Notes: a model not told the origin generated them from the sequence alone. A stretch of DNA of 43,770 nucleotides from a virus (IMGVR_UViG_3300036924_000004), one strand, 5' to 3'; counted from the first letter of the stretch, positions 3,855-43,770 are shown. A program made the numbers and translations.

Positions 3855-4355
3855 ATGCCCTCTTTCGGAAGAAAGTCTCGTGCTATACTGAGTACCCTAT
3901 GCGAAGACGCGCAAGACGTATTAATCGTAGCTATAAAATTTATCGATTTTTCCCTTATAGACGGCGCTAAAAAAGAAGAGCGCCAGACTCGGTTTTTTAC
4001 AAGTAACCCGCCGCTATCCCACGCGCGTTTCGGCCAAAGCGCTCATAACTGGAACTGCTCTTGCTGCTCTAGTAAAAGCTTACCGAAAGCTATGGCGTGG
4101 GATATAGTTCCCTACCCGGTGCCGCCATGGAATGACCCCCGCCCTAGCGCGATAGCCGAAACTGAGCGCAGGTTTAATGAGGTGCTACTAGTCTTATCAG
4201 TGGCCGCAGAAGCCCTTGGAATTGACATTACTCTCGGTAAAAATTTTTCGTCGAAAGATTTTCCGCACATAGAGCTAACGGACTGGGCTTTGCGCAAAAA
4301 GACCTTGATAACCACAGACTGGACCGATATATTCCAGGTTGGTACTAACTTTTGA
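3855..4355 (+). CDS. M15-family zinc peptidase (T5 endolysin-like L-alanoyl-D-glutamate peptidase), putative endolysin
   Basis: DFSLIDG...ERQ, SAHNW...AWDIVPY and DFPHIEL parallel T5 endolysin DFTIVQG, SKHITGDAIDFAPY and DGGHVEL. A Cys-rich insert lies between the His and Asp ligands. Confidence 0.6.
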   Translation: MPSFGRKSRAILSTLCEDAQDVLIVAIKFIDFSLIDGAKKEERQTRFFTSNPPLSHARFGQSAHNWNCSCCSSKSLPKAMAWDIVPYPVPPWNDPRPSAIAETERRFNEVLLVLSVAAEALGIDITLGKNFSSKDFPHIELTDWALRKKTLITTDWTDIFQVGTNF

Positions 4356-4838: not shown

Positions 4839-5138
4839 ATGAGGCTTATCCCTATGACCGACGCCAAAGAAAAATACCTTCAGTATAACCTAGGTAGAGT
4901 ACTACGCGTTTTGACAAGTGTGTCGTTACCTGAGCTAGAGTCATTACTAAGCGAGGAAACCCCAGTCGACGAAAGCTTACTAAAAGCGAGGTTTAGCCAT
5001 GCTAAGGCTAACAAGGGCCACGAGGGTAGCTGCTTCGAAGACGACATAAAACTCGGTAAGCTATTTCTAGAAGACAGGCGAGAAAGTCTAGACAAGGCTT
5101 TTGAGCTGCTCACGGCCGCTAAAGAGGAGCTTAAGTGA
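4839..5138 (+). CDS. hypothetical protein
   Basis: ORF in operon register. Alternative ATG at 4854 after GAGG. The stop overlaps the next start (GTGATG). Confidence 0.55.
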   Translation: MRLIPMTDAKEKYLQYNLGRVLRVLTSVSLPELESLLSEETPVDESLLKARFSHAKANKGHEGSCFEDDIKLGKLFLEDRRESLDKAFELLTAAKEELK

Positions 5139-5317
5139 TGGGCGAACCGCTGTCAATCTGGTATCTTATCTCGGGTCTAGCTGTAGCCGCAGCTGTCTTA
5201 GTGTCGCTTCCTATCGTGCTTACCGGATTACTGTTCTATCTATTCCTGCGAAGTCACTTCGCTATAGCCCCAATGCTTGACGACGAGCCGCGGGACGAGG
5301 ACGACGATTATTACTAA
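5138..5317 (+). CDS. small membrane protein, holin-like
   Basis: 59 aa with two hydrophobic helices (IWYLISGLAVAAAVLVSLPIVLTGLLFYLFL) and a highly charged C-terminus (DDEPRDEDDDYY). AGAGGAG RBS. Confidence 0.5.
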   Translation: MGEPLSIWYLISGLAVAAAVLVSLPIVLTGLLFYLFLRSHFAIAPMLDDEPRDEDDDYY

Positions 5318-5748: not shown

Positions 5749-6078
5749 ATGAGGCATCTAATATTACTGGTTCTATTGTCGGCTTGCGGCGCTACCGTTA
5801 AGCAAGTGCAAAAGGTGGAGGGCCAAGCGACTATAATCGCTAGGGTGGAAATATCTTTCCCGACCTGTGAGGGTATAGAGGATGAGGCCTTGCTTGTGGA
5901 GTGCGTTAAAGCATCGAAACTAGCGATAGAAGCTACCGGCCTAGACCTCAGCGAAGAACAGTTGAAAATACTAGCTGAGCTTGAAAAGCTGGCTGGTGAC
6001 AAGGAAGAAGAAACCGAAGACGAGGAGACTGGCGATGCCGAAAATGAAGACGGAGCTACCGCTGACGAGGGTACTTAA
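5749..6078 (+). CDS. lipoprotein with acidic C-terminal tail
   Basis: Signal peptide MRHLILLVLLSAC with lipobox LSAC. The C-terminus is E/D-rich. AAGGGGG RBS. Confidence 0.75.
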   Translation: MRHLILLVLLSACGATVKQVQKVEGQATIIARVEISFPTCEGIEDEALLVECVKASKLAIEATGLDLSEEQLKILAELEKLAGDKEEETEDEETGDAENEDGATADEGT

Positions 6079-6526: not shown

Positions 6527-6618
6527 ATCAAAAACGCTAAAGTTTCAGCTGTCGCTTACCGATAGTAATAATGTCAGCTGGGTTGCTGACGGCATATTTT
6601 AACAAAAGGAGAACCGAT

Positions 6619-6867
6619 ATGCTTAAGAACTTACACTGGCTTATTGCTGCGTTACTACTTATGGCTGTTGTGCTTGTGCTATCTGCGTGCGGGCAAGAGG
6701 CGAAATTTCATTCCGTTTACGAGACCGGTACGCTTAACAAGCCGGCGCCTCAGGACGATGAGAGACGCGTATACATTTGCGACTACGAGATTACTCCCGA
6801 TGGCGTTACTAAGGCCTATGTTTGCCGCGAAGTGCTTGACGAGGCTAGCGAGTTCTGCGGTGGGTAG
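6619..6867 (+). CDS. lipoprotein
   Basis: MLKNLHWLIAALLLMAVVLVLSACGQ signal peptide with lipobox. AAAGGAG RBS before ATG 6619. The mature part has 3 further Cys. Confidence 0.75.
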   Translation: MLKNLHWLIAALLLMAVVLVLSACGQEAKFHSVYETGTLNKPAPQDDERRVYICDYEITPDGVTKAYVCREVLDEASEFCGG

Positions 6868-28462: not shown

Positions 28463-28738
28463 CTAAGTAATACACAGCGCAGCTCTAACAGCAGCGTCCT
28501 TAGCTTCTAGTAGCTTACGTAGCGCTACCTCAGCCTCTTCCTTAGCTCTTGAAAGCTCAAGCGGATTATAGAGGCCTTCACTAGCCCCAGTGCTTACGTA
28601 CTTATCGTATACGCTTTTCGCTACTACCAAGGCTAAGTCCTTGAACGGCTTGCTTACCGGTTTAAGCTTGTCAGGTAGGTGCTCATAATCGAAAAACTTC
28701 AACGTAGTAAAGCAAAAATCCATATCTATTGGAATCAT
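28463..28738 (-). CDS. hypothetical protein (conserved phage family ending ALRKLLEAKDAAVRA)
   Basis: AAGGAGG RBS. The C-terminal motif is remembered from many phage hypothetical proteins. Confidence 0.65.
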   Translation of the reverse strand: MIPIDMDFCFTTLKFFDYEHLPDKLKPVSKPFKDLALVVAKSVYDKYVSTGASEGLYNPLELSRAKEEAEVALRKLLEAKDAAVRAALCIT

Positions 28739-28753
28739 ATCAGTCCTCCTTAC

Positions 28754-29227
28754 TTAACAAAAAGAAACGGCGCCAGTTACCGAGTCGACAATAGCTACTG
28801 GTTTCCGGAGCTTAACAAGTTTAGTCACCATATCGTGGGTACCGCGGCGCTTGCCGGTGTATACCGCTATACCAAAGTCCGAGAAATCCGCCATAGCCGT
28901 GTTGCGCCTAGACACTGCGGCTTTTCCGTATTTAGCCCGAGCCTCTTTAGTAACGGGGAACTCATGAACTACTCCTGTAATAAACGGCGGGAAACCACTA
29001 GCGTGCGGGGTAACCTCCCGTAGCATATACGGAACCATATCAGGGCTGTTTTCACAACACCCAGACACAAGGTCAAGTGGCGATAAGCTAAGTAAGCTAA
29101 GAGCCGGCATGCTGAGCAGTAGTTTCCCAATTATTAGCGAGTACTGCCTGGTTATAAAATCTAACGCGACGTAAGGACTTATCCCTTGGGCCCCAAAAAT
29201 TACTAGTCTATTCGGTCTGTTTAGCAT
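28754..29227 (-). CDS. SLOG-superfamily protein (DUF2493/YspA-like)
   Basis: LVIFGAQG..., SGCCENSPD, KYGKAAVSRRNTAM and GKRRGTHDM parallel the DUF2493 blocks vtGsR, hGac.GAD, G.aAg..RN..M and GsrGT. GGAGGGAG RBS. Confidence 0.6.
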   Translation of the reverse strand: MLNRPNRLVIFGAQGISPYVALDFITRQYSLIIGKLLLSMPALSLLSLSPLDLVSGCCENSPDMVPYMLREVTPHASGFPPFITGVVHEFPVTKEARAKYGKAAVSRRNTAMADFSDFGIAVYTGKRRGTHDMVTKLVKLRKPVAIVDSVTGAVSFC

Positions 29228-29271: not shown

Positions 29272-29300
29272 GTTTTAGTTAAAAAATTTTACAAAGTCAA
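29272..29300 (-). promoter_or_regulatory. sigma70-like promoter TTGACT-N17-TAAAAC for the SLOG operon
   Basis: The hexamers are the reverse complements of 29295-29300 and 29272-29277. The spacer is exactly the conserved 17-mer. Confidence 0.45.
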
Positions 29301-29316
29301 GTTTTTACTGTAGAGT
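29288..29316 (+). promoter_or_regulatory. sigma70-like promoter TTTACA-N17-TAGAGT for the pentapeptide operon
   Basis: Hexamers at 29288-29293 and 29311-29316. Overlaps the divergent promoter back to back. Confidence 0.4.
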
Positions 29317-29355: not shown

Positions 29356-29589
29356 ATGACAGATATAAAAGACATTTGGCTTATAGCCCTAGGAGTAGCC
29401 ATAACATCTACTGTGTCTATCATGGCTTATGCCTCGCTAACCGAGAAACCCACGCCCGGCAAAACGCACTACTCGATATGCGTGGATAACACCTACCCCA
29501 AGTGCGTCCTAGCTAATAAGACGCTGCCGAGCCTTGAAACTTTTTGCAAGGTAGCTACAGAAATCCAATGTAAGGAGCTAAAATTATGA
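29356..29589 (+). CDS. N-terminally anchored small membrane protein with 4 Cys
   Basis: IWLIALGVAITSTVSIMAYA transmembrane segment followed by a Cys-containing domain. AGGAGA RBS. Confidence 0.6.
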   Translation: MTDIKDIWLIALGVAITSTVSIMAYASLTEKPTPGKTHYSICVDNTYPKCVLANKTLPSLETFCKVATEIQCKELKL

Positions 29590-30167
29590 CACAAGACAGA
29601 TATTTCAGCCCTGGCTCTAGCCTGGCGCTATACGCCGGAATGTGGTTCCTTCTGCTCGCTATCGCGTTCACCGGCGAGCCCGCCTATTTCTACCTCTTCA
29701 TAAGCGCTGCGGCGCTTGCCGTGTTCAGCGTCCTAGCGCGTTTCGTTTTCGCCCAGTACCGCTGCTATCTATACGCTAAGAAAGCGATCAGGTATGGCGC
29801 TAACGCGATTAACTATTTCGTCGCAGCTAGAGCCACAGAAGACACGCTAAAGCGCTTCGAAAGAGACGAGTATAGTAAAATGCTAGAAGTGGTCATGCCT
29901 AGAGCCTACAAGGGGCAAGTAAAAGCGCGCCGAGATAAAATAGATTACTATTATAGCTGCTTAGACCACTGCAAAAAGCGTCAAGATTTTTACCTAAAGC
30001 TATTGCACGCTGAGGGCATGGACTACAGAGAAACGGCCGGCAATGTCCTTGCCGCGTCTAGCGATCTAGCCGAGCTAAACCCTGCCGTAGCTAAGATGCG
30101 CGCGAACCCTAAAGCGCGTTTCAGTATCGATGATATCGTAAACGCAATGAGCAAAGTGGAGGACTGA
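29586..30167 (+). CDS. two-TM membrane protein with helical cytoplasmic domain
   Basis: LALYAGMWFLLLAIAF and YFYLFISAAALAVFSVLARFVF segments. ATGA overlap with the upstream gene. Confidence 0.65.
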   Translation: MTQDRYFSPGSSLALYAGMWFLLLAIAFTGEPAYFYLFISAAALAVFSVLARFVFAQYRCYLYAKKAIRYGANAINYFVAARATEDTLKRFERDEYSKMLEVVMPRAYKGQVKARRDKIDYYYSCLDHCKKRQDFYLKLLHAEGMDYRETAGNVLAASSDLAELNPAVAKMRANPKARFSIDDIVNAMSKVED

Positions 30168-30169
30168 AA

Positions 30170-30697
30170 ATGGCATTTACAGAGGAACAGCTAAAGGCTA
30201 TCCTATCAAGTCACGCGCTATGGGTGAGAAGTAGCGAAACTGAGGGCGAGAAAGCCTCCTTTATGGGCGCAGACCTGGGCGGAGTCGACCTTAGGCACGC
30301 CTGCCTGTGTGAGGCGGACTTTAGAAACGCTACCCTTGACAGGGTAAACCTACACGGAGCGGACCTATATGGCGCCGATTTTAGCGGCTCTGACCTACAG
30401 CATTCGTCTCTGTCTTGTGCGAACCTCAGTGACGCGGACTTTAGAGGCGCAAATCTATATTGCGCAGACCTATACGGTGTCTACGCCGCTCGCACACAGG
30501 GCCTAATAACGTTCTACCTTGGAGTCTTTTCCGGCCATATGACCCTACATGACAAGCAAGTAACTATAGGCTGTACTAGCTTGTCTTTGGACGACTTTCT
30601 AGCACGCGCTGACGAGCTCATAATCGAGCACGACATACCGGGGGACTTAGCCCATAAGCTAAAAGCCTTTGGCTTGTTTCTTAAAGCTAACTACTAA
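30170..30697 (+). CDS. pentapeptide-repeat protein
   Basis: ADLGGVDLRHACLCEADFRNATLDRVNLHGADLYGADFSGSDLQHSSLSCANLSDADFRGANLYCADLYG gives about 14 consecutive A(D/N)LXX pentads. Confidence 0.88.
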   Translation: MAFTEEQLKAILSSHALWVRSSETEGEKASFMGADLGGVDLRHACLCEADFRNATLDRVNLHGADLYGADFSGSDLQHSSLSCANLSDADFRGANLYCADLYGVYAARTQGLITFYLGVFSGHMTLHDKQVTIGCTSLSLDDFLARADELIIEHDIPGDLAHKLKAFGLFLKANY

Positions 30698-30713
30698 AAA
30701 CAGGAGGACTGAA

Positions 30714-30815
30714 ATGAATGATTTGATACTGGCCTGGTGTATAGGGCTAGCCGTCGTATCGCTGATAGCCGCGATGATAACTGACAAGAACGATGATAAC
30801 CGTCCCCGAAAGTAG
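30714..30815 (+). CDS. 33-aa membrane mini-protein (not in ORF track)
   Basis: MNDLILAWCIGLAVVSLIAAMITDKNDDNRPRK. Its initiation region GGAGGACTGAAATG is nearly identical to that of the pentapeptide gene (GGAGGACTGAAAATG at 30158-30172). Confidence 0.55.
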   Translation: MNDLILAWCIGLAVVSLIAAMITDKNDDNRPRK

Positions 30816-30858
30816 CTACCCCGAGAGCCGCTAGTACGAGATGCTAGCGACTTTTAGC

Positions 30859-31098
30859 TTAAGACCCACCTAGAGCCCCTAACAAGCCAAGCATATCGTC
30901 TCGCATCTTAGCCGTTCTCGGTATGTGTATAGTAGTAGCGTCTTTTGCGCCGCATTCGCACTCACCGGTAGAGATACCAACGGAGCGCGAGGCGATAAAC
31001 GGCGTAACCTCGTACACCGCAGCGCCGCATATACAGTGTAACGGTAAGTCCTCTTCGAACGTAGGGTAACGCTTTAACCAAAAATCAGTGTATTTCAA
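30859..31098 (-). CDS. small Cys-containing protein
   Basis: TTG start after AGAGGGA. Contains HCICG ... ECECG pairs. Confidence 0.5.
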   Translation of the reverse strand: MKYTDFWLKRYPTFEEDLPLHCICGAAVYEVTPFIASRSVGISTGECECGAKDATTIHIPRTAKMRDDMLGLLGALGGS

Positions 31099-31668: not shown

Positions 31669-31878
31669 CTAATCCTTATATTCCATTTTTACTCGCCATC
31701 CGTTGTCGCAAAAGAACGTGCCGGAAGAATCGACTCCTGTAACATAGCACATTTTATTGGCTTTGATCCAAAAGGCCCTAGAGACGTGCGTTTTGCGGAC
31801 CTCTGAAGCAAATACATAGCCTATAAGACCGATAGCTAGCAAGAAAATACTTAACCAGAAAAAATTGTCGTTTCTCAT
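31669..31878 (-). CDS. small membrane protein
   Basis: ATG 31878 forms an ATGA overlap with the upstream stop. FFWLSIFLLAIGLIGYVF transmembrane segment. Confidence 0.55.
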   Translation of the reverse strand: MRNDNFFWLSIFLLAIGLIGYVFASEVRKTHVSRAFWIKANKMCYVTGVDSSGTFFCDNGWRVKMEYKD

Positions 31879-32264
31879 ATTAACCCCTGTGAAATAGCCG
31901 CTGCCAATACCTGGTCTAAGAGCTTCCACTCAAAGTAGCTACCGGTAGTAGCGTTACATAAAGTCATAATCTTAGTTCCGTACTCGGCCTTGCCTTGAGC
32001 CATCCGCGTTAGCCGCCGTATGTGCGCAGCTGGCAGGAAATCAAGAGGCGGGTACTCCGGTAAGTCGATAATCCCTGCCCTAACGGCCTCGCAGAAAAGA
32101 TGCCTGAAGCTCTCGACGCTTGGATCGCTAAATACCGCGGCTTGGCGTATCGTAGTAAGTTTCTTCTCGCAGATATCGAGTACCACGCTAGCCTCTTTAA
32201 CGTTAACGCCTCGCGCCATCAATTCCATTAACCTTATTTCCATTGGGCGTAGTTTGTAATCCAT
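31875..32264 (-). CDS. LuxR/GerE-type HTH regulator (two HTH-like units)
   Basis: LRPMEIRLMELMARGVNVKEASVVLDICEKKLTTIRQA plus a second unit LPAAHIRRLTRMAQGKAEYGTKIM. GGAGGGA RBS. Confidence 0.55.
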   Translation of the reverse strand: MDYKLRPMEIRLMELMARGVNVKEASVVLDICEKKLTTIRQAAVFSDPSVESFRHLFCEAVRAGIIDLPEYPPLDFLPAAHIRRLTRMAQGKAEYGTKIMTLCNATTGSYFEWKLLDQVLAAAISQGLI

Positions 32265-32323
32265 ACGCGTCCCTCCTTAGTGATAGCTTACTTATCGGCA
32301 GGTTTAGCACTAAAACTTAGACT

Positions 32324-32353
32324 AAAATACTCCTATTTTTGTAAATGTAGCAA
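32324..32353 (-). promoter_or_regulatory. candidate promoter TTGCTA-N18-TATTTT for the 32264 operon
   Basis: Reverse complements of 32348-32353 and 32324-32329. Confidence 0.35.
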
Positions 32354-32574
32354 ATATCTACGCAACCGTTGCGCAGTGTTGTGAATTTACCACAGTGCAT
32401 AGGGATTACGCTAAATAAGCGCTGGTAATGATAACAGCTAGTTGCGAGGAGGTGTCCCGTGTCGACGTATCGCAATTAGCCGTTTCGCGCATTTCGCTAC
32501 GCCTTTCTTTCCTCGCCCGCCAATAGCGCGTAGCTTTTCACTACGTTTTGCCTAGATACGTACCGGGGTTTAAA

Positions 32575-32841
32575 CCTGTCCAGGGTAAGTCCAGAGCATT
32601 TGCCATACATGCGATTAAGCGTAAAGCATTGATTTTTATATATTAGTCTAGTGTATCCATACTATCTATAGATAAATATATTTATTATGTATATATAAAA
32701 AGTAAAAACGCATAAAATAGTACACATATAGATATACGTATATAGCGTGTAGTGAATATACCCCCTAGCTGTGGACAGGGGTGGACAGGAACGCAACCCA
32801 CCGTAATCAAAACTAAAATAGCGAATGGCGTAGTGGACAAG
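32575..32841. promoter_or_regulatory. putative replication origin: AT-rich unwinding region flanked by TGGACAGG iterons
   Basis: CCTGTCCA (32575-32582, inverted), an AT-rich block at about 32630-32760 with ATATAGATA twice, GTGGACAGG at 32771 and 32781, and GTGGACAAG at 32833. Lies upstream of the primase-helicase gene. Confidence 0.45.
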
Positions 32842-32928
32842 CTCTGGCCAAGCAATGGCCTCTCCGGACTTTTCTAGTCTTTTTAGTGATTTATCTTATT
32901 TTGGCTGGGTTTTTGGCGTTTTATCTAG

Positions 32929-32957
32929 TTGACTGGAGTCTCGATCTTGGTTAAGAA
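32929..32957 (+). promoter_or_regulatory. sigma70-like promoter TTGACT-N17-TAAGAA for the primase-helicase gene
   Basis: Hexamers at 32929-32934 and 32952-32957. Followed by a 7-bp stem hairpin gtcgggg-cgagaa-ccccgac (32961-32980). Confidence 0.4.
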
Positions 32958-33029
32958 TAAGTCGGGGCGAGAACCCCGACCGGCTTTGAGAAAACAGACT
33001 CTAAACCTAAACCGATACGGAGAATCTAG

Positions 33030-35645
33030 ATGCACCAGCTAAAGTTGTCAACAGGAAAGTTCGACCTAGGCCGCTGTGATGAGACTACAACCTCCTGGCC
33101 CTCGTTCTCAAGATCCCTAATGAATCCGCTGCGTTTAGACAAGCCTCAAAGCTACATCGATGGGCTAAAGTCCCGCGCCTTGGCCGCGACGCCTGAGGCC
33201 TCAGAGGCGGACCGGGAGCTGCGAACGCTCAAGGGCGCAGCTGGCTACTTTGTCGGTGGCACGTTCAAAACAAAGCTGGAAAAGTCCAATAGTTACGCTA
33301 GGAAAAACTTTAACCTAGCCGCCCGAACCCTCATAACGCTGGACGCAGACTTTGCCCCAACCAACTTCCCGGCTGTTATTCACAATTCCAGCGTTAGCCC
33401 CTATATCGGTACGTACTACACGACCTTTTCCCACAAGGATGATCGCCCAAAAATACGCATAGTTATGCCGCTAACAGGGCCCATATCGCCTGAAAAATAC
33501 CAACCTATAGCGCGGAAAATAGCCCAGTTAATATCGCCTGATCTAAGCTGGTTTGACCCCGTCTCCTTTGTAGAGGCGCAGCTTATGTTCTTTCCGGTAG
33601 TCCCTTTAGATAATCCATTTTGGGCGGACTCTTGGGGCTACGTGCCAGTCGATGGCGACGAGATACTCGCTTTGTATGAGAACTGGCAAAATCCGCTTTC
33701 CTGGCCCTTAACGCCTAAGGAGCTCGCTGACCCCCGAACGTACCGGGTCGACCAACTGAACGACCCGAGGCAAAAACCGGGCCTCATAGGGGCATTTTGC
33801 AACGCCTACTCGATATCTGAGGTAATCGAGACCTACCTCAACGATAAATACGTGCCGGTAGAGTCTAACCGCTACACCCATCTGGGCGGTAGTGGACACG
33901 CTGGCGCAGTGGCTTACGACGGCGACACCCATCTTTACTCGCGGCACACCCATGACCCTGCTAATACGGGAACCTGCCATAACGCGTTCGATCTAGTCCG
34001 CATCCATAAGTTCGGCTACCTCGACCAGACGGCCCCTGCGGGAACCCCGAGCAATGAGCTGCCAAGCCTAAAAGCCATGCTCGACTTCGCTAGCCGCGAT
34101 CCGGCCCTAGCGATAATGGGCTTTGGCAAGGTTACGCCCGATGCGCTTCCTGAGGAGGTTAGAGACTTGCCTCCTGAGGTTCTGGCTACTCTAGGCTACA
34201 ACGTGGACACGCAGATAGGGGCAAAGCCCAAGCCGCTAAGCCCTGGGCAAATCCAAGACGATATCCTTGAGGTACTGTCTGGGCGAAAAGGCCGCTGCTT
34301 TAACTCTGACTCGGATATCCAAAAGTGGGGAAGCGTCGACTTTTTCTCGTGTAACTATAAGGTCGTCGCGCCGATGACTGAGGGCTCAAACCCGATCATA
34401 ATACGCCTAGGCGACTCGTGCAAGCTAGCCGAACCCGAGGAAGTCGTCCTTGAGCTAATGGACTGGCTTAGGGTCGCCGTGGAAAGAGATAAGCGCTTTT
34501 TGCCGTATTTTAAGGACTCAAAGGACCTTATCCGTTACGTTAAGCTGTGGACCCACAAGCAAGCTGACCTTGAAGAGCTGCCAAAGCCTGTAGCGTTCCG
34601 AAGCGACCCCGAGCTGACGATGAACCGTCTAAGCTACGACCCACTACCATGTGACGACGTGCAGCTTCCGAGCGTAGCGCCTACGTTCCACTCGATGCTA
34701 AAGCGGATATCTACTAACAGGACAGCGCTTGTGCAGCGGCTAGGAAGTATCTTCGATATGAAAGCTAACCGCAAGCAAGCCGTTTGGCTATACGGTCCAG
34801 GCGATGCGGGAAAGAGCACTATCCAATGGCTAATCTCGCAAATGACCGGCCCAAAGCCCGTGTGCACGTTAAGCCAGGAGCTTATAAAATCGGCGTTCTT
34901 TACGCAAAACCTAGTGGGTCGAAGGGTAGCCCTAGTGCCAGAAGCCGGGGCTTGGTTTATACGCCAGGACAGATTCAAGTCGCTCACCGGTGACAGGATA
35001 CACGGCGTTAACCCAAAGGGGAAGCCGAGCTACTCAGCAAATATCGATACGATGTTCTTTTTCTTTTCAAACGATAAGCCCGAGATAGCGAACTCCAAGG
35101 AGTTTTTGAGCCGGCTCATAGACTGCAAGATCGACTCGATACCCGAAGACGAGATACTCGGCGAGTTCGAGGTTCAGCAGCGTCTGACAAGCGAGATGGC
35201 TTATATAATCGGTTACTGCGTATCAGCGTACAATAGGGTTAACCTGGGCCGAAGCATACCGGTTGAGCAAGCGACTCTAAAAGAGATAGCCGAGGACTTC
35301 CAGTCGAGCGAGTATGAGTTCGTTGAGCGCTACCTTAAGCCGGGAGAACCCGACGACTATAACGAGCACGAGCACGTTACGCCCAACCAGCTTTGCCGCA
35401 TGTATGCCGAGTGGCTGGGAACCGGCAGAAACGGGGCCAAGGAGCGCGACCTAAAGACCTTCCTGCGCCGCGACTACAAGGCCTATATCAAGAAACTAGG
35501 CTTCATGTCCGGTAAGCGCTATAGGGTTTGGTGCGGCGTGCTGTGGCGAGACCCGACGGAGCTAATGGCACTAGACCCGCCACCGGTATCACCGGCGCAG
35601 GTCAAAAGCAGCTTAATACTAGTACCGCCAGAAAATAGGCAGTAG
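33030..35645 (+). CDS. primase-polymerase (AEP-like) fused to P4/D5-type SF3 helicase
   Basis: N-terminal ITLDADF (DxD) and TFSHKDDRPKIRIVMPL. C-terminal Walker A in VWLYGPGDAGKSTI and Walker B-like RVALVPEAG. 871 aa. Confidence 0.85.
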   Translation: MHQLKLSTGKFDLGRCDETTTSWPSFSRSLMNPLRLDKPQSYIDGLKSRALAATPEASEADRELRTLKGAAGYFVGGTFKTKLEKSNSYARKNFNLAARTLITLDADFAPTNFPAVIHNSSVSPYIGTYYTTFSHKDDRPKIRIVMPLTGPISPEKYQPIARKIAQLISPDLSWFDPVSFVEAQLMFFPVVPLDNPFWADSWGYVPVDGDEILALYENWQNPLSWPLTPKELADPRTYRVDQLNDPRQKPGLIGAFCNAYSISEVIETYLNDKYVPVESNRYTHLGGSGHAGAVAYDGDTHLYSRHTHDPANTGTCHNAFDLVRIHKFGYLDQTAPAGTPSNELPSLKAMLDFASRDPALAIMGFGKVTPDALPEEVRDLPPEVLATLGYNVDTQIGAKPKPLSPGQIQDDILEVLSGRKGRCFNSDSDIQKWGSVDFFSCNYKVVAPMTEGSNPIIIRLGDSCKLAEPEEVVLELMDWLRVAVERDKRFLPYFKDSKDLIRYVKLWTHKQADLEELPKPVAFRSDPELTMNRLSYDPLPCDDVQLPSVAPTFHSMLKRISTNRTALVQRLGSIFDMKANRKQAVWLYGPGDAGKSTIQWLISQMTGPKPVCTLSQELIKSAFFTQNLVGRRVALVPEAGAWFIRQDRFKSLTGDRIHGVNPKGKPSYSANIDTMFFFFSNDKPEIANSKEFLSRLIDCKIDSIPEDEILGEFEVQQRLTSEMAYIIGYCVSAYNRVNLGRSIPVEQATLKEIAEDFQSSEYEFVERYLKPGEPDDYNEHEHVTPNQLCRMYAEWLGTGRNGAKERDLKTFLRRDYKAYIKKLGFMSGKRYRVWCGVLWRDPTELMALDPPPVSPAQVKSSLILVPPENRQ

Positions 35646-41037: not shown

Positions 41038-41673
41038 TTGTTAGAGCAAGCTATTCAAACGTTAACGCAGCACGTAGCCGCGCTGACAGAAACCGTAAAA
41101 ACTCTAGACCAGTCGATAAAAGCCGCTAATACCATTAGCGCTAAACCGAAAGCCACTCGAAAGCCTACCAAGGCGAGCGCGTCCAAGGACAAGGCGGAGG
41201 CCCCCCGCGAGCAGGTGCAGATAGACGCTAACGGTAACGGCGTGACGATGTCACAAGCGCCACAGCCACAAGCGCCACAGCCACAAGCGCCACAGCCACA
41301 AGCGCCACAGCCACAGCAGTACGCCGCAACTTTCGTTCCGGGCCAAGGGTACTCACCGGGTGTTCCCCCTTACGCTCCGCACGCTCCGGAAGCCGTGTAT
41401 CAACCGCCGCCGCCGCCCCAAGCTCCGCAGCAGTACGCGCCTCCCGCGCAACCCTTACCGCCGCCGGCTAATCAAGCGCCTCTTGAGATAACCGAGCAAA
41501 CGGTACGAGATGCGCTTGTAGGCCTTTACAAGGAGACTATGGACAATACGATAACCGCGCAGATACTAGCGCCTTTTGGGGCTAAGACAGCTATAGACCT
41601 AAAGCCTGATCAGCTAGTTCCGGTGTACAATGCGATTCAGGAACGCCGGGCGCAAATACCTAGACGAGGGTAG
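41038..41673 (+). CDS. P/Q-rich protein: coiled-coil N-terminus, PQPQA repeats, small globular C-terminus
   Basis: TTG start 9 nt after AAGGAG. (PQPQA)x4 is followed by about 70 aa of P/Q/A/Y-rich sequence. Confidence 0.65.
   Translation: MLEQAIQTLTQHVAALTETVKTLDQSIKAANTISAKPKATRKPTKASASKDKAEAPREQVQIDANGNGVTMSQAPQPQAPQPQAPQPQAPQPQQYAATFVPGQGYSPGVPPYAPHAPEAVYQPPPPPQAPQQYAPPAQPLPPPANQAPLEITEQTVRDALVGLYKETMDNTITAQILAPFGAKTAIDLKPDQLVPVYNAIQERRAQIPRRG
41254..41313 (+). repeat. 15-bp x4 perfect tandem repeat caagcgccacagcca (coding)
   Basis: Units at 41254, 41269, 41284 and 41299. Confidence 0.95.
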
Positions 41674-42940: not shown

Positions 42941-42949
42941 AAATTAACT

Positions 42950-43041
42950 AAAGTAACAGCGTAACAAAGTAACAGCGTAACAAAGTAACAGCGTAACAAA
43001 GTAACAGCGTAACAAAGTAACAGCGTAACAAAGTAACAGCG
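42950..43041 (+). repeat. 16-bp tandem repeat aaagtaacagcgtaac x5.75 (11 GTAACA hexamers at 8-nt spacing), non-coding
   Basis: Direct reading with zero mismatches. Hexamers occur at 42953 + 8n for n = 0..10. Confidence 0.97.
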
Positions 43042-43082: not shown

Positions 43083-43770
43083 ATGGCAAGACTAATGTTC
43101 AAAGACGTGCGGGTGTCTTTCCCCGCACTATTTAGCAGCCCGGTCATTAACGGAAAAGAAGCCAAGATGGGGGCTAAACTCCTGTTAGACCCGGCTAAAG
43201 ACGCCGCCTATGTGCAGCAGACAAACGAGGCTATAACCCGAGTAATGCAGGAAAAGTGGGGAGCTAACCCGCCGCAAATACCAGCCGACAAGTATTGCTT
43301 GCGTATAGGCAATCGACCCGAATATCAAGGAGCGCTAGTGCTTACCGCTAGCAATAAAAACAGGCCCTGGGTGTGGGACTCAGACGGACAGACCCGCATC
43401 GACGACGAAAGTAGGTGCCGTATATATTCCGGCTGCCGGGTAAACGCCGCAGTCGATATCTATGCTTTCGTTCACAAGCAGTACGGGGCGCAGATTAGCG
43501 CCGAGCTAGTAGCTATCCAGTTTAACGGCGACGACGTTCCGCTTGAAGGTGGCGTGATAACACGCGAGCAAGCAGCGGAGGGCTTCGGCTCGGTAAATGC
43601 GGTTAGCCCAATGCCAGGAATGCCAGGCCCCGGCGCCGGACTTCCACAAGGCTATCCTGCTCCAGCAGCGCAACCGCCACAAGGCTATCCTGCTCCAGCA
43701 GCGCAACCGCCACAAGGCTATCCTGCTCCAGCAGCGCAACCGCCACAAGGCTATCCTGCTCCAGCAGCGC
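43083..43770 (+). CDS. ssDNA-binding protein (T7 gp2.5 / DUF2815-like), 5' portion; continues at 1..185
   Basis: MARLMFKDVRVSFPALF... N-terminus is typical of gp2.5-like SSBs found next to DUF2800 nucleases and family A polymerases. The C-terminal part is PQGYPAPAAQP repeats running off the window end. Confidence 0.8.
   Translation, partial: MARLMFKDVRVSFPALFSSPVINGKEAKMGAKLLLDPAKDAAYVQQTNEAITRVMQEKWGANPPQIPADKYCLRIGNRPEYQGALVLTASNKNRPWVWDSDGQTRIDDESRCRIYSGCRVNAAVDIYAFVHKQYGAQISAELVAIQFNGDDVPLEGGVITREQAAEGFGSVNAVSPMPGMPGPGAGLPQGYPAPAAQPPQGYPAPAAQPPQGYPAPAAQPPQGYPAPAA
43660..43770 (+). repeat. 33-bp tandem repeat, 3 units plus a 12-nt partial; same family as 1-131
   Basis: Units at 43660, 43693 and 43726, with a partial unit at 43759-43770. 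Confidence 0.95.

Follow-up and report, generated by a model that had tools for sequence, protein, structure and literature searches.

Pentapeptide-repeat proteins (PRPs) are very common in phages, and nearly all of them have no assigned function. According to a literature search, one member of the phage PRP family discussed here has been examined experimentally, 24_60 of Vibrio phage 24 (SBVc24_0060, KJ572844), a protein of 140 amino acids (aa). All phage 24 escapers from the Sucellos defence system were mutated in the 24_60 gene, and deletion of this gene made the phage far more Sucellos-sensitive (10.1101/2024.07.02.601686). Sucellos (SclA, SclB) is an integron-cassette system of V. cholerae, which is structurally RexAB-like and combines a sensor with a membrane pore (10.1101/2024.07.02.601686). 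Darracq et al., who conducted these experiments, proposed that 24_60 is an anti-defence protein (10.1101/2024.07.02.601686). Because the authors corrected the number of repeats, the published escaper residues, 110-115, could not be mapped onto the sequence as deposited. Here, we describe a PRP gene in the 43,770-bp genome of a contractile-tailed phage (IMGVR_UViG_3300036924_000004; this whole stretch of DNA is called the window below). The gene is part of a four-gene cassette, located at 29356-30815, and its neighbours code for three small membrane proteins, referred to as the triad. Comparison with related cassettes revealed that the triad is constant while the PRP gene is optional, and suggests that the PRP is a passenger, which may act in counter-defence.

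The same phage PRP family includes orf232 of Salmonella phages ST64T/L, ORF19 of ST104, gp46 of Oslo, and ORF-67 of Edwardsiella phage PEi21, all of which occupy variable accessory positions. The 24_60 protein shares 48% identity with ST64T orf232 and 42% with PEi21 ORF-67. Lambdoid PRPs sit in the early-left operon of temperate phages, by ral, sieB, gene 17, cIII, and kil, and ST64T orf232 is found between ral and gene 17, where P22 has sieB (PMC8022706). In Oslo, gp46 has a sieB-type gene on one side and cIII on the other. ST64T/L orf232, related lambdoid PRPs, and PEi21 ORF-67 are 35-38% identical to the window PRP over residues 4-155. Unlike the window PRP, the PRPs of ST64T/L, ST104, Oslo, and PEi21 have no adjacent membrane triad.

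The cassette consists of four closely packed plus-strand genes, with minus-strand genes on both flanks. A scan for open reading frames (ORFs), combined with hydropathy analysis, revealed the three genes of the triad, which code for a 77-aa protein (gene 1, 29356-29589), a 193-aa protein (gene 2, 29586-30167), and a transmembrane (TM) peptide of 33 aa (gene 3, 30714-30815). The 175-aa PRP, identified by the ORF scan together with Pfam, PHROG, and AlphaFold2 (AF2), is encoded between the last two, at 30170-30697. The genes of the 77- and 193-aa proteins overlap at ATGA, and the next two gaps are 2 nt and 16 nt. A σ70-like promoter, TTTACA-17-TAGAGT, preceded by an A-rich upstream tract, was detected by a consensus scan at 29288-29316 on the plus strand and would serve the whole unit. 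An earlier note on this DNA had described four coupled genes behind their own promoter, and both the ORFs and a putative promoter were found. This is the sole such σ70-like site in an intergenic region of the window, and the rest of the window gave no shared promoter motif by which the unit could be placed in a temporal class.

The untranslated region (UTR) that follows the promoter and extends to 29355 is conserved. The -35/-10 block is nearly identical in the window and in two related contigs, L007 and L008, while a third, L010, deviates in the -10 hexamer; the promoter region as a whole is 90% identical to that of L010. The 5' UTR core, ACAACCnCTATAGGAG, is retained also in the more distant L013 and L015. 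At the other end of the unit, between convergent genes, there is a plus-strand hairpin (30829-30849), whose sequence, GCCGCTAGTACGAGATGCTAGCGGC, is conserved in L007 and L010, and which is a probable terminator with a weak T-tract. That the small ORFs are coding is supported by the comparison with relatives, in which they stay open at 53-64% identity and in which third-codon positions diverge more than positions 1 and 2.

To compare the cassettes, relatives were obtained by exact-protein look-ups of contigs, which yielded nine distinct versions. The genes of the 77- and 193-aa proteins were present in nine versions out of nine, and the TM-peptide gene was present wherever the contig extended that far. 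A different picture emerged for the interval that separates the 193-aa gene from the TM-peptide gene. This slot holds a PRP gene in two versions (the window, of which the samples L024 and L025 hold identical copies, and L010, along with one further JGI place), and a gene for a 145-aa 2H-phosphoesterase-like protein in two others (L008/L009, at L008 3741-4178 and L009 1630-1758; and L022/L023, at L022 1260-1415 and L023 797-952). It is empty in the remaining five (L007, L021, L013/L014, L015, and L017). An extra 54-aa TM ORF is found within the slot in L008 and L010. The earlier note had taken the four genes for one system, for which co-occurrence would be the check; once this check was run, with a PRP in two of nine cassette lineages, an unrelated gene in two, and nothing in five, the claim had to be given up, since the four-gene combination is not fixed. 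The statement that no described phage system has this composition is true but not informative; the composition is incidental.

The L007 contig (40.7 kb) shows synteny with the window over the whole portal-to-primase interval, and at the cassette locus it differs by the absence of the PRP. The most divergent triads, whose 193-aa proteins are 44-48% identical to that of the window, lie in another genomic neighbourhood, and there the PRP is also absent. Because the most divergent triads lack the PRP, we consider the empty slot to be ancestral.

The ancestry of the PRP gene also differs from that of its neighbours. Between the window and L010, the PRP genes are 89.8% identical in DNA and 78% identical at third codon positions, as compared to 70.7% and 61% for the 77-aa gene, and 69.3% and 55% for the 193-aa gene. 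At the protein level, the identity is 92% for the PRP versus 59-64% for the flanking products. The higher identity at third codon positions indicates that the PRP genes share a more recent common ancestor through lateral exchange, over and above any stronger constraint on the protein. The composition of the gene is not foreign (51.1% GC versus 49.3% for the window). We infer that the PRP gene is a recently swapped-in mobile passenger in a variable cargo slot. An assignment of function by association with the neighbouring genes has to be corrected correspondingly: at this locus, it is the membrane proteins that stay, and the PRP that visits.

A trace of the insertion may be preserved at the borders of the PRP gene. 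A 17-nt repeat (repeat family D4) is present there in two plus-strand copies, 545 nt apart. The left copy, AAAGTGGAGGACTGAAA (30153-30169), comprises the end of gene 2 and the ribosome-binding site (RBS) of the PRP gene; the right copy, AAACAGGAGGACTGAAA (30698-30714), comprises the RBS of the TM-peptide gene and a vestigial gene-2 stop context. Both contain an exact 12-mer, GGAGGACTGAAA, at 30158-30169 and 30703-30714, for which 0.1 occurrences with one mismatch or fewer are expected in the window. In every relative, the 193-aa gene ends in GTG GAG G(A/G)N TGA, which doubles as a Shine-Dalgarno sequence for the next gene, and in the window its final codons, GTG GAG GAC TGA, provide the RBS of the gene that follows. 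In the PRP-less L007, L021, L013, L015, and L017, the junction goes straight into the TM-peptide gene; in L007, it reads GTGGAGGGTTGATATGAAT. The right copy in the window retains GAG GAC TGA of the 193-aa gene end, and this TGA is not used as a stop, since the PRP gene already ends at TAA (30695-30697).

The simplest reading of the repeated GGAGGACTGAAA is that it is the junction, which would have been duplicated when the PRP gene was inserted. The earlier note had reported that the initiation region of the TM-peptide gene copies that of the PRP gene; the exact duplication stands, and it is better read as an insertion-duplicated junction than as a sign that the PRP and the peptide are co-regulated. 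The repeated initiation sequence may be what recombination uses. A third near-copy of GGAGGACTGAAA, matching at 11 of 12 positions, is found on the minus strand at 28738-28749, where it forms the RBS of a minus-strand gene (28463-28738), and GGAGGACT is present at 4 of 62 gene initiation regions.

The identity of the PRP is clear. It matched Pfam family PF00805 with an E-value of 1.7e-22 and 79 bits, as compared to a cut-off of 20.2, and contains 15 in-register pentads at residues 31-105 (15-16 pentads over the modelled helix, 30-105), with at least eight contiguous A(D/N)LXX pentads taken as the mark of a PRP. In an AF2 model with a mean predicted local distance difference test score (pLDDT) of 85.8, a capping helix (residues 5-20) is followed by a rung for every five residues at 30-105 (pLDDT 93-98), and by an alpha/beta domain at 113-174. 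The count of about 14 uninterrupted pentads and the non-repeat C-terminal domain announced by the earlier note thus hold, with 15 pentads in register and the C-terminal domain delimited by the model. The predicted beta-helix, with four pentads to the coil, has about four coils and a length of roughly 19 Å. A Foldseek search with the model returned Np275, Rfr23, HetL, and MfpA at a probability of 1.0, and the best matches were generic cyanobacterial PRPs. The protein is acidic (isoelectric point (pI) 4.96, net charge -11).

Searches against phage proteins placed the PRP in a family. It matched phrog_7713 over residues 3-76 (E=1.7e-28) and phrog_31567 over residues 79-152 (E=2.2e-9); the former is also matched by 24_60, orf232, PEi21 ORF-67, and a PRP from contig L015. 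By tblastn, matches were found in 417 phage records, and BFVD contains dozens of models of uncharacterised phage PRPs. The best tblastn matches span residues 4-155 of the PRP, well past the end of the repeats at residue 105, and among them are PEi21 ORF-67, Rheinheimera Barba phages, Staphylococcus Kayvirus-like phages, and Salmonella ST64T orf232. In an alignment of 11 sequences, G134, C135, and I151 of the C-terminal domain are invariant, while the window PRP lacks the Gln, Trp, and Met-Asp positions of the phage PRP consensus (...IGCQ.H...EW..FS..EI..MD..AL.FW...). When a hidden Markov model (HMM) of this domain was built from the other members, the window PRP scored 10.7 bits and its L010 orthologue 16.2 bits; 2000 shuffled sequences scored 4.8 bits or less. 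As judged from these sequence comparisons, the window PRP is a divergent member of a widespread phage PRP family, whose members combine an N-terminal cap helix with a short beta-helix and a C-terminal domain that carries a Gly-Cys motif.

The L015 contig, in which the cassette slot is empty, encodes its 139-aa PRP with a Gly-Cys C-terminal domain at another place, 2577-2996, between RusA and DUF3799 nuclease genes. At the corresponding position of the sister contig L013 (2330-2989), there is an unrelated 219-aa gene. The RusA/DUF3799 interval is a second variable position that accepts PRP genes. PRPs from IMG/VR contigs L001 and L002 are encoded among DNA-metabolism genes, without membrane partners.

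The alternative occupant of the slot, the 145-aa protein, contains two H-x-T motifs. All of its matches, which came from Pfam, PHROGs, and NCBIfam, were below curated cut-offs: 2_5_RNA_ligase2 (E=0.005), Acb1 (E=0.047), phrog_755 (E=4e-4), and TIGR02258 (E=6e-5). No tblastn match in phages and no match in PDB was found for this protein. An Acb1 identity was considered and dropped, as the matches were sub-threshold, and the protein is named just 2H-phosphoesterase-like. 2H phosphoesterases are a known class of counter-defence and RNA-repair proteins, and the 145-aa protein could be an Acb1-like or LigT-like counter-defence enzyme.

The constant part of the cassette is without known relatives outside a narrow group of phages. 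The 77-aa protein has one hydrophobic segment at ~7-27 and cysteines at positions 42, 50, 64, and 72. Its N-terminal anchor is variable, while a C-terminal mini-domain of ~45 aa is strongly conserved; nine homologues share an invariant core, KT.YS.C..NT...CVL.NK.LPSLE, and three of the four cysteines are invariant, with Cys64 replaced by Arg in P0133, the L008 copy. The protein is probably bitopic, with a periplasmic, disulfide-bonded Cys4 domain. The 193-aa protein has hydrophobic segments at ~10-30 and ~32-57, followed by about 130-135 aa that are basic (pI 9.2, net charge +6). An AF2 model, in which this C-terminal part is also all-helical, is helical throughout (pLDDT 76.6), and no match to it was found among PDB folds (best E=0.7). 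Based on the positive-inside rule, the C-terminal domain is probably cytoplasmic. Homologues are 61-65% identical, more distant ones 44-48%, and the TM hairpin with the juxtamembrane segment is unusually conserved in the alignment. A public gene call for 29586-30167, P0121 (175 aa), begins at internal Met19, which would remove the first TM segment; the longer start is favoured because homologues are 192 aa long. The 33-aa TM peptide has one TM segment and a charged C-terminal tail, and its orthologues in L007, L010, L013, L015, L017, and L021 are 32-38 aa long, with a core of LL(A/G)W..GLA.V.L.

No matches to the 77-, 193-, and 33-aa proteins were found in Pfam and PHROG, none to the 77- and 193-aa proteins, the two searched, among PDB sequences, and none to the 77-aa protein in PADLOC and NCBIfam. 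All four cassette products were without a match at E<=0.05 in PADLOC-DB v2, a library that covers RexAB-type systems but predates both Hailong and Sucellos. Among 5.8 billion proteins, relatives of the 193-aa protein form five clusters, and those of the 77-aa protein form eight. A HMMER search of 1.84 billion representatives with a 193-aa profile returned its own cluster and one weak remote match, P0136, and a tblastn search of phages with the 193-aa protein returned no match. Pattern scans for the 193- and 77-aa families came back empty from IMG/VR, from the metagenome contigs of JGI, and from 185,579 genomes of bacteria and archaea. By all of these searches, the triad is a tiny orphan family limited to a small clade of uncultured marine contractile-tailed phages.

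The genome in which the cassette resides has a 111-nt overlap at its ends, made of a perfect 33-nt tandem repeat in 3.8 copies (1-127 and 43644-43770). Because of this terminal overlap, the assembly is probably circular and complete; the ends would join within a tandem repeat that is part of a coding sequence. Among the products of the window are a DNA polymerase, helicases, an 871-aa replication protein of the primase type, and an exonuclease, as well as a full contractile-tail module with sheath and baseplate, a portal, a protease, a major capsid protein, and a TerL block. The TerL protein is ~59% identical to that of 45-49-kb Vibrio myoviruses. When the cassette region was compared by blastn with 50,697 phage records, no DNA match was observed. 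No integrase or repressor was found among the annotated genes of the window, and the phage therefore appears virulent.

The surroundings of the cassette are themselves variable. The gene that diverges from it on the 5' side codes for a 115-aa HNH_3 endonuclease in L008 (2465-2812), L010 (263-610), and L021 (204-551), while the window (28754-29227) and L007 hold an unrelated gene of 157/158 aa at this place, with weak matches to phrog_289 and to ShosA-like proteins. A homing endonuclease adjoining the variable slot may drive local mosaicism. The gene convergent with the cassette (30859-31098, minus strand) codes for a 79-aa protein with a TTG start and paired Cys-x-Cys motifs, and its L007 copy is 82% identical. 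At the distant triad loci, there is instead an unrelated basic, Cys-containing 79-aa protein (L013 5970-6209, L015 5967-6206, and L017 965-1204). Further along, a stretch of ~766 bp (32265-33029) separates a minus-strand gene (31875-32264) from the divergent plus-strand gene of the primase-type replication protein (33030-35645); it contains no ORF of 70 aa or more, only ones of 25-52 aa, and is a candidate early-promoter or origin region. Other perfect or near-perfect tandem repeats are a 15-nt unit present 4.3 times (41252-41315, within the gene at 41038-41673) and a 16-nt unit present six times (42945-43041, 3' of the exonuclease gene).

As to the function of the triad, the nearest architectural parallel is provided by T4. 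The entry of DNA is blocked there by Imm, a small protein with two TM segments in the inner membrane, while Sp is a small periplasmic inhibitor of the gp5 tail lysozyme. Similarly, the triad would combine a two-TM inner-membrane hairpin with a small anchored, probably periplasmic Cys domain, in an apparently virulent phage and behind a host-type promoter. The parallel is one of architecture, as there is no sequence or profile similarity; in addition, Imm has no counterpart to the large basic cytoplasmic domain of the 193-aa protein, and the triad adds a third TM peptide. Given this analogy and the host-type promoter in an apparently virulent phage, our preferred guess is that the triad acts in superinfection exclusion at the envelope, a suggestion we make tentatively and would not be surprised to see fail. 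Nearly as likely, the triad would interfere with a target in the inner membrane of the host. The triad is a candidate for a new superinfection-exclusion or host-takeover function at the level of a guess.

Taken together, these data lead us to favour, with slightly better than even confidence, the following account. The unit would be a self-contained accessory cassette, probably early and transcribed by the host polymerase, with a conserved core of three small inner-membrane proteins and a hypervariable cargo slot between core genes 2 and 3. In the window phage, the slot appears to have captured a mobile phage PRP gene, whose insertion would have duplicated the RBS/stop junction of the 193-aa gene and left the two copies of GGAGGACTGAAA. 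The PRP would then act alone in the cytoplasm as a counter-defence protein that binds and neutralises a sensor or effector of the host; by analogy with 24_60 and Sucellos, the target would plausibly be a component of an abortive-infection system that senses DNA or nucleoprotein. Membership in the cassette would give the PRP early co-expression and not a physical partnership. The earlier note had proposed that the PRP blunts a DNA-sensing defence; that proposal gains from the acidity of the protein, its presence in a phage, and the 24_60 precedent, while the analogy to Qnr, MfpA, and gyrase on which it was built fails on NCBIfam scores, the number of coils (about four), and the different C-terminal domain.

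Several points weigh against this account. The evidence for 24_60 is genetic, comes from a preprint, and concerns one defence system, without an established mechanism (10.1101/2024.07.02.601686). Outside the repeats, the window PRP resembles 24_60 only weakly (10.7 bits), and it has no match to phrog_37032 at E<=0.1. The survey covers just nine lineages, several of them from short contigs. The third copy of GGAGGACTGAAA, at 11 of 12 positions, and the occurrence of GGAGGACT at several starts mean that a favoured initiation sequence may partly explain the repeat. The early timing is read from a single indication, a consensus-like promoter, and the evidence on the window PRP and triad is all computational. 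Finally, an optional PRP could still dock on the triad when it is present: the acidic PRP would face a basic cytoplasmic domain in the 193-aa protein.

In the rival view, that of the earlier note, the four products form one module, in which a DNA-mimic PRP is tethered or regulated at the membrane by three partners and serves in exclusion, at the injection site, or in anti-restriction. The tight spacing of the genes (the ATGA overlap and the gaps of 2 and 16 nt) within a single promoter-to-hairpin unit would fit such a module, the opposite charges of the PRP (-11) and the 193-aa cytoplasmic domain (+6) would allow an interaction, and a combination of a PRP with a membrane channel exists in defence, in Hailong HalA (PMC13586616). 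The module should, however, travel as a whole, and it does not: five of the nine lineages carry the triad without a PRP, and two carry it with an unrelated enzyme. The ancestry of the PRP is distinct from that of its neighbours and more recent, homologous phage PRPs occur elsewhere without membrane partners, and there is no PADLOC match. We therefore consider a single module to be improbable.

A more elaborate scenario, to which we give an equally low weight, joins the cargo slot with a role of the triad. The triad would be a new envelope-level apparatus of a marine phage clade, for superinfection exclusion or at the injection site, and the RBS/stop junction would be a dedicated recombination hotspot, at which genes for counter-defence proteins (PRP, 2H phosphoesterase, or 54-aa TM protein) come and go, gaining early expression. 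In the strongest version, the acidic PRP would dock on the basic 193-aa domain as a DNA-mimic decoy, placed at the membrane so as to encounter host sensors or incoming DNA.

The triad and its variable cargo could also be a system, borne by the phage, that defends against competing phages or excludes them, with a membrane effector and an exchangeable cytoplasmic sensor or modulator (the PRP or the 2H enzyme). The moron-like layout, with its own promoter and hairpin, and the variable middle gene fit such a system, whose logic of a sensor combined with a membrane pore is common to RexAB and Sucellos. In most lineages, however, the triad is complete without any cargo; no product matches PADLOC, the phage appears virulent, and the family is absent from the 185,579 bacterial and archaeal genomes. 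Moreover, 24_60, the one studied PRP of the family, acts against a defence and not as one. We consider a defence system quite unlikely.

No better placed is the view that the cassette is lysis machinery, with the 193-aa protein as a holin, the small TM proteins as regulators of holin/antiholin timing, and the PRP as irrelevant cargo. All three core products are small membrane proteins, and class II holins have two TM segments, as does the 193-aa protein; the anchored periplasmic Cys-containing protein recalls T4 RI. A basic cytoplasmic domain of ~130 aa is nevertheless atypical of a holin, none of the triad proteins matches a holin or spanin PHROG, and the σ70-like promoter suggests early and not late expression. 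The endolysin candidate of the window (3855-4355; phrog_465, E=1.6e-10) is encoded 25 kb away. Close to it are genes for a 60-aa two-TM holin-like protein with a highly acidic tail (5135-5317) and for two lipobox-like proteins (LLSAC and VLSAC; 5749-6078 and 6571-6867), which together make up the likely lysis neighbourhood. Because this separate neighbourhood has TM and lipoprotein genes of its own, the triad is unlikely to be the lysis cassette.

Least probable of all is that the PRP is a topoisomerase modulator of the Qnr/MfpA/AlbG type, which would retune or protect the gyrase of the infected host: its fold is the pentapeptide beta-helix, its surface is acidic, it has weak local matches to MfpA and Qnr structures or models, and phages do encode small gyrase inhibitors of other folds (PMC10886550), but it scores about one tenth of the NCBIfam cut-offs (24.6 versus 240 bits for Qnr, NF033086; 25.4 versus 360 bits for MfpA, NF000349), has about four coils in place of eight or more with neither Qnr loops nor a C-terminal dimerisation helix, and is structurally closest to generic cyanobacterial PRPs rather than to Qnr, MfpA, or AlbG.

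When the locus is set beside known systems, the window PRP shares with Qnr, MfpA, AlbG, and McbG a beta-helix of A(D/N)LXX pentads that is right-handed and quadrilateral, with an acidic surface. Qnr and MfpA proteins have a beta-helix of ~8 or more coils and a dimerising C-terminal helix, which make up a DNA-sized rod of ~100 Å, and Qnr also has loops A and B. In contrast, the model of the window PRP predicts about four coils without these loops, and a 70-aa alpha/beta domain replaces the dimerisation helix. Qnr, MfpA, AlbG, and McbG protect topoisomerase, whereas the window PRP has the setting of a phage accessory gene, for which no link to gyrase is known.

Another point of comparison is Hailong, whose HalA protein is described as containing pentapeptide repeats and an IRK channel domain (PMC13586616) and is termed, in a mechanism summary, an ion channel gated by DNA (PMC13434031). 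As in the cassette, a pentapeptide-repeat module is associated with a membrane protein in phage-host conflict. In HalA, however, the repeats and the channel form one polypeptide, which has a nucleotidyltransferase partner, while in the phage-borne cassette the PRP is a separate, optional gene and there is no nucleotidyltransferase; the two are likened by description only. An analogy to gp30 of mycobacteriophage Sbash, part of a defence pair with a membrane protein, was considered; the corresponding paper makes no mention of pentapeptide repeats, and this analogy was dropped.

The closest counterpart of the window PRP remains 24_60. Both proteins have an N-terminal helix with an (I/V)L..H motif, a short A(D/N)LXX run, and a C-terminal domain, probably homologous, with the Gly-Cys motif, and both match phrog_7713 and phrog_31567. 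Both genes are accessory: 24_60 is carried by a ~44-kb contractile-tailed phage, where it is inserted between homologues of CP-T1 genes 15 and 16, and it is absent from the sister phage CP-T1. The differences are also considerable. BLAST aligns the two proteins in the repeat region only, at ~33% identity; the window PRP has 15 pentads versus ~8-9 in deposited 24_60, and its C-terminal domain is divergent. The 24_60 gene is found among small soluble early genes, while the window PRP gene lies inside a membrane-protein cassette, and phage 24 and the window phage are otherwise barely related. The window PRP is a new member of a family that was already known, if poorly understood, and its locus defines a small accessory-gene hotspot. 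The family shared with the anti-Sucellos protein 24_60, together with the alternation of the PRP cargo with a 2H-phosphoesterase-like gene, provides a concrete, testable hypothesis for the function of a phage PRP.

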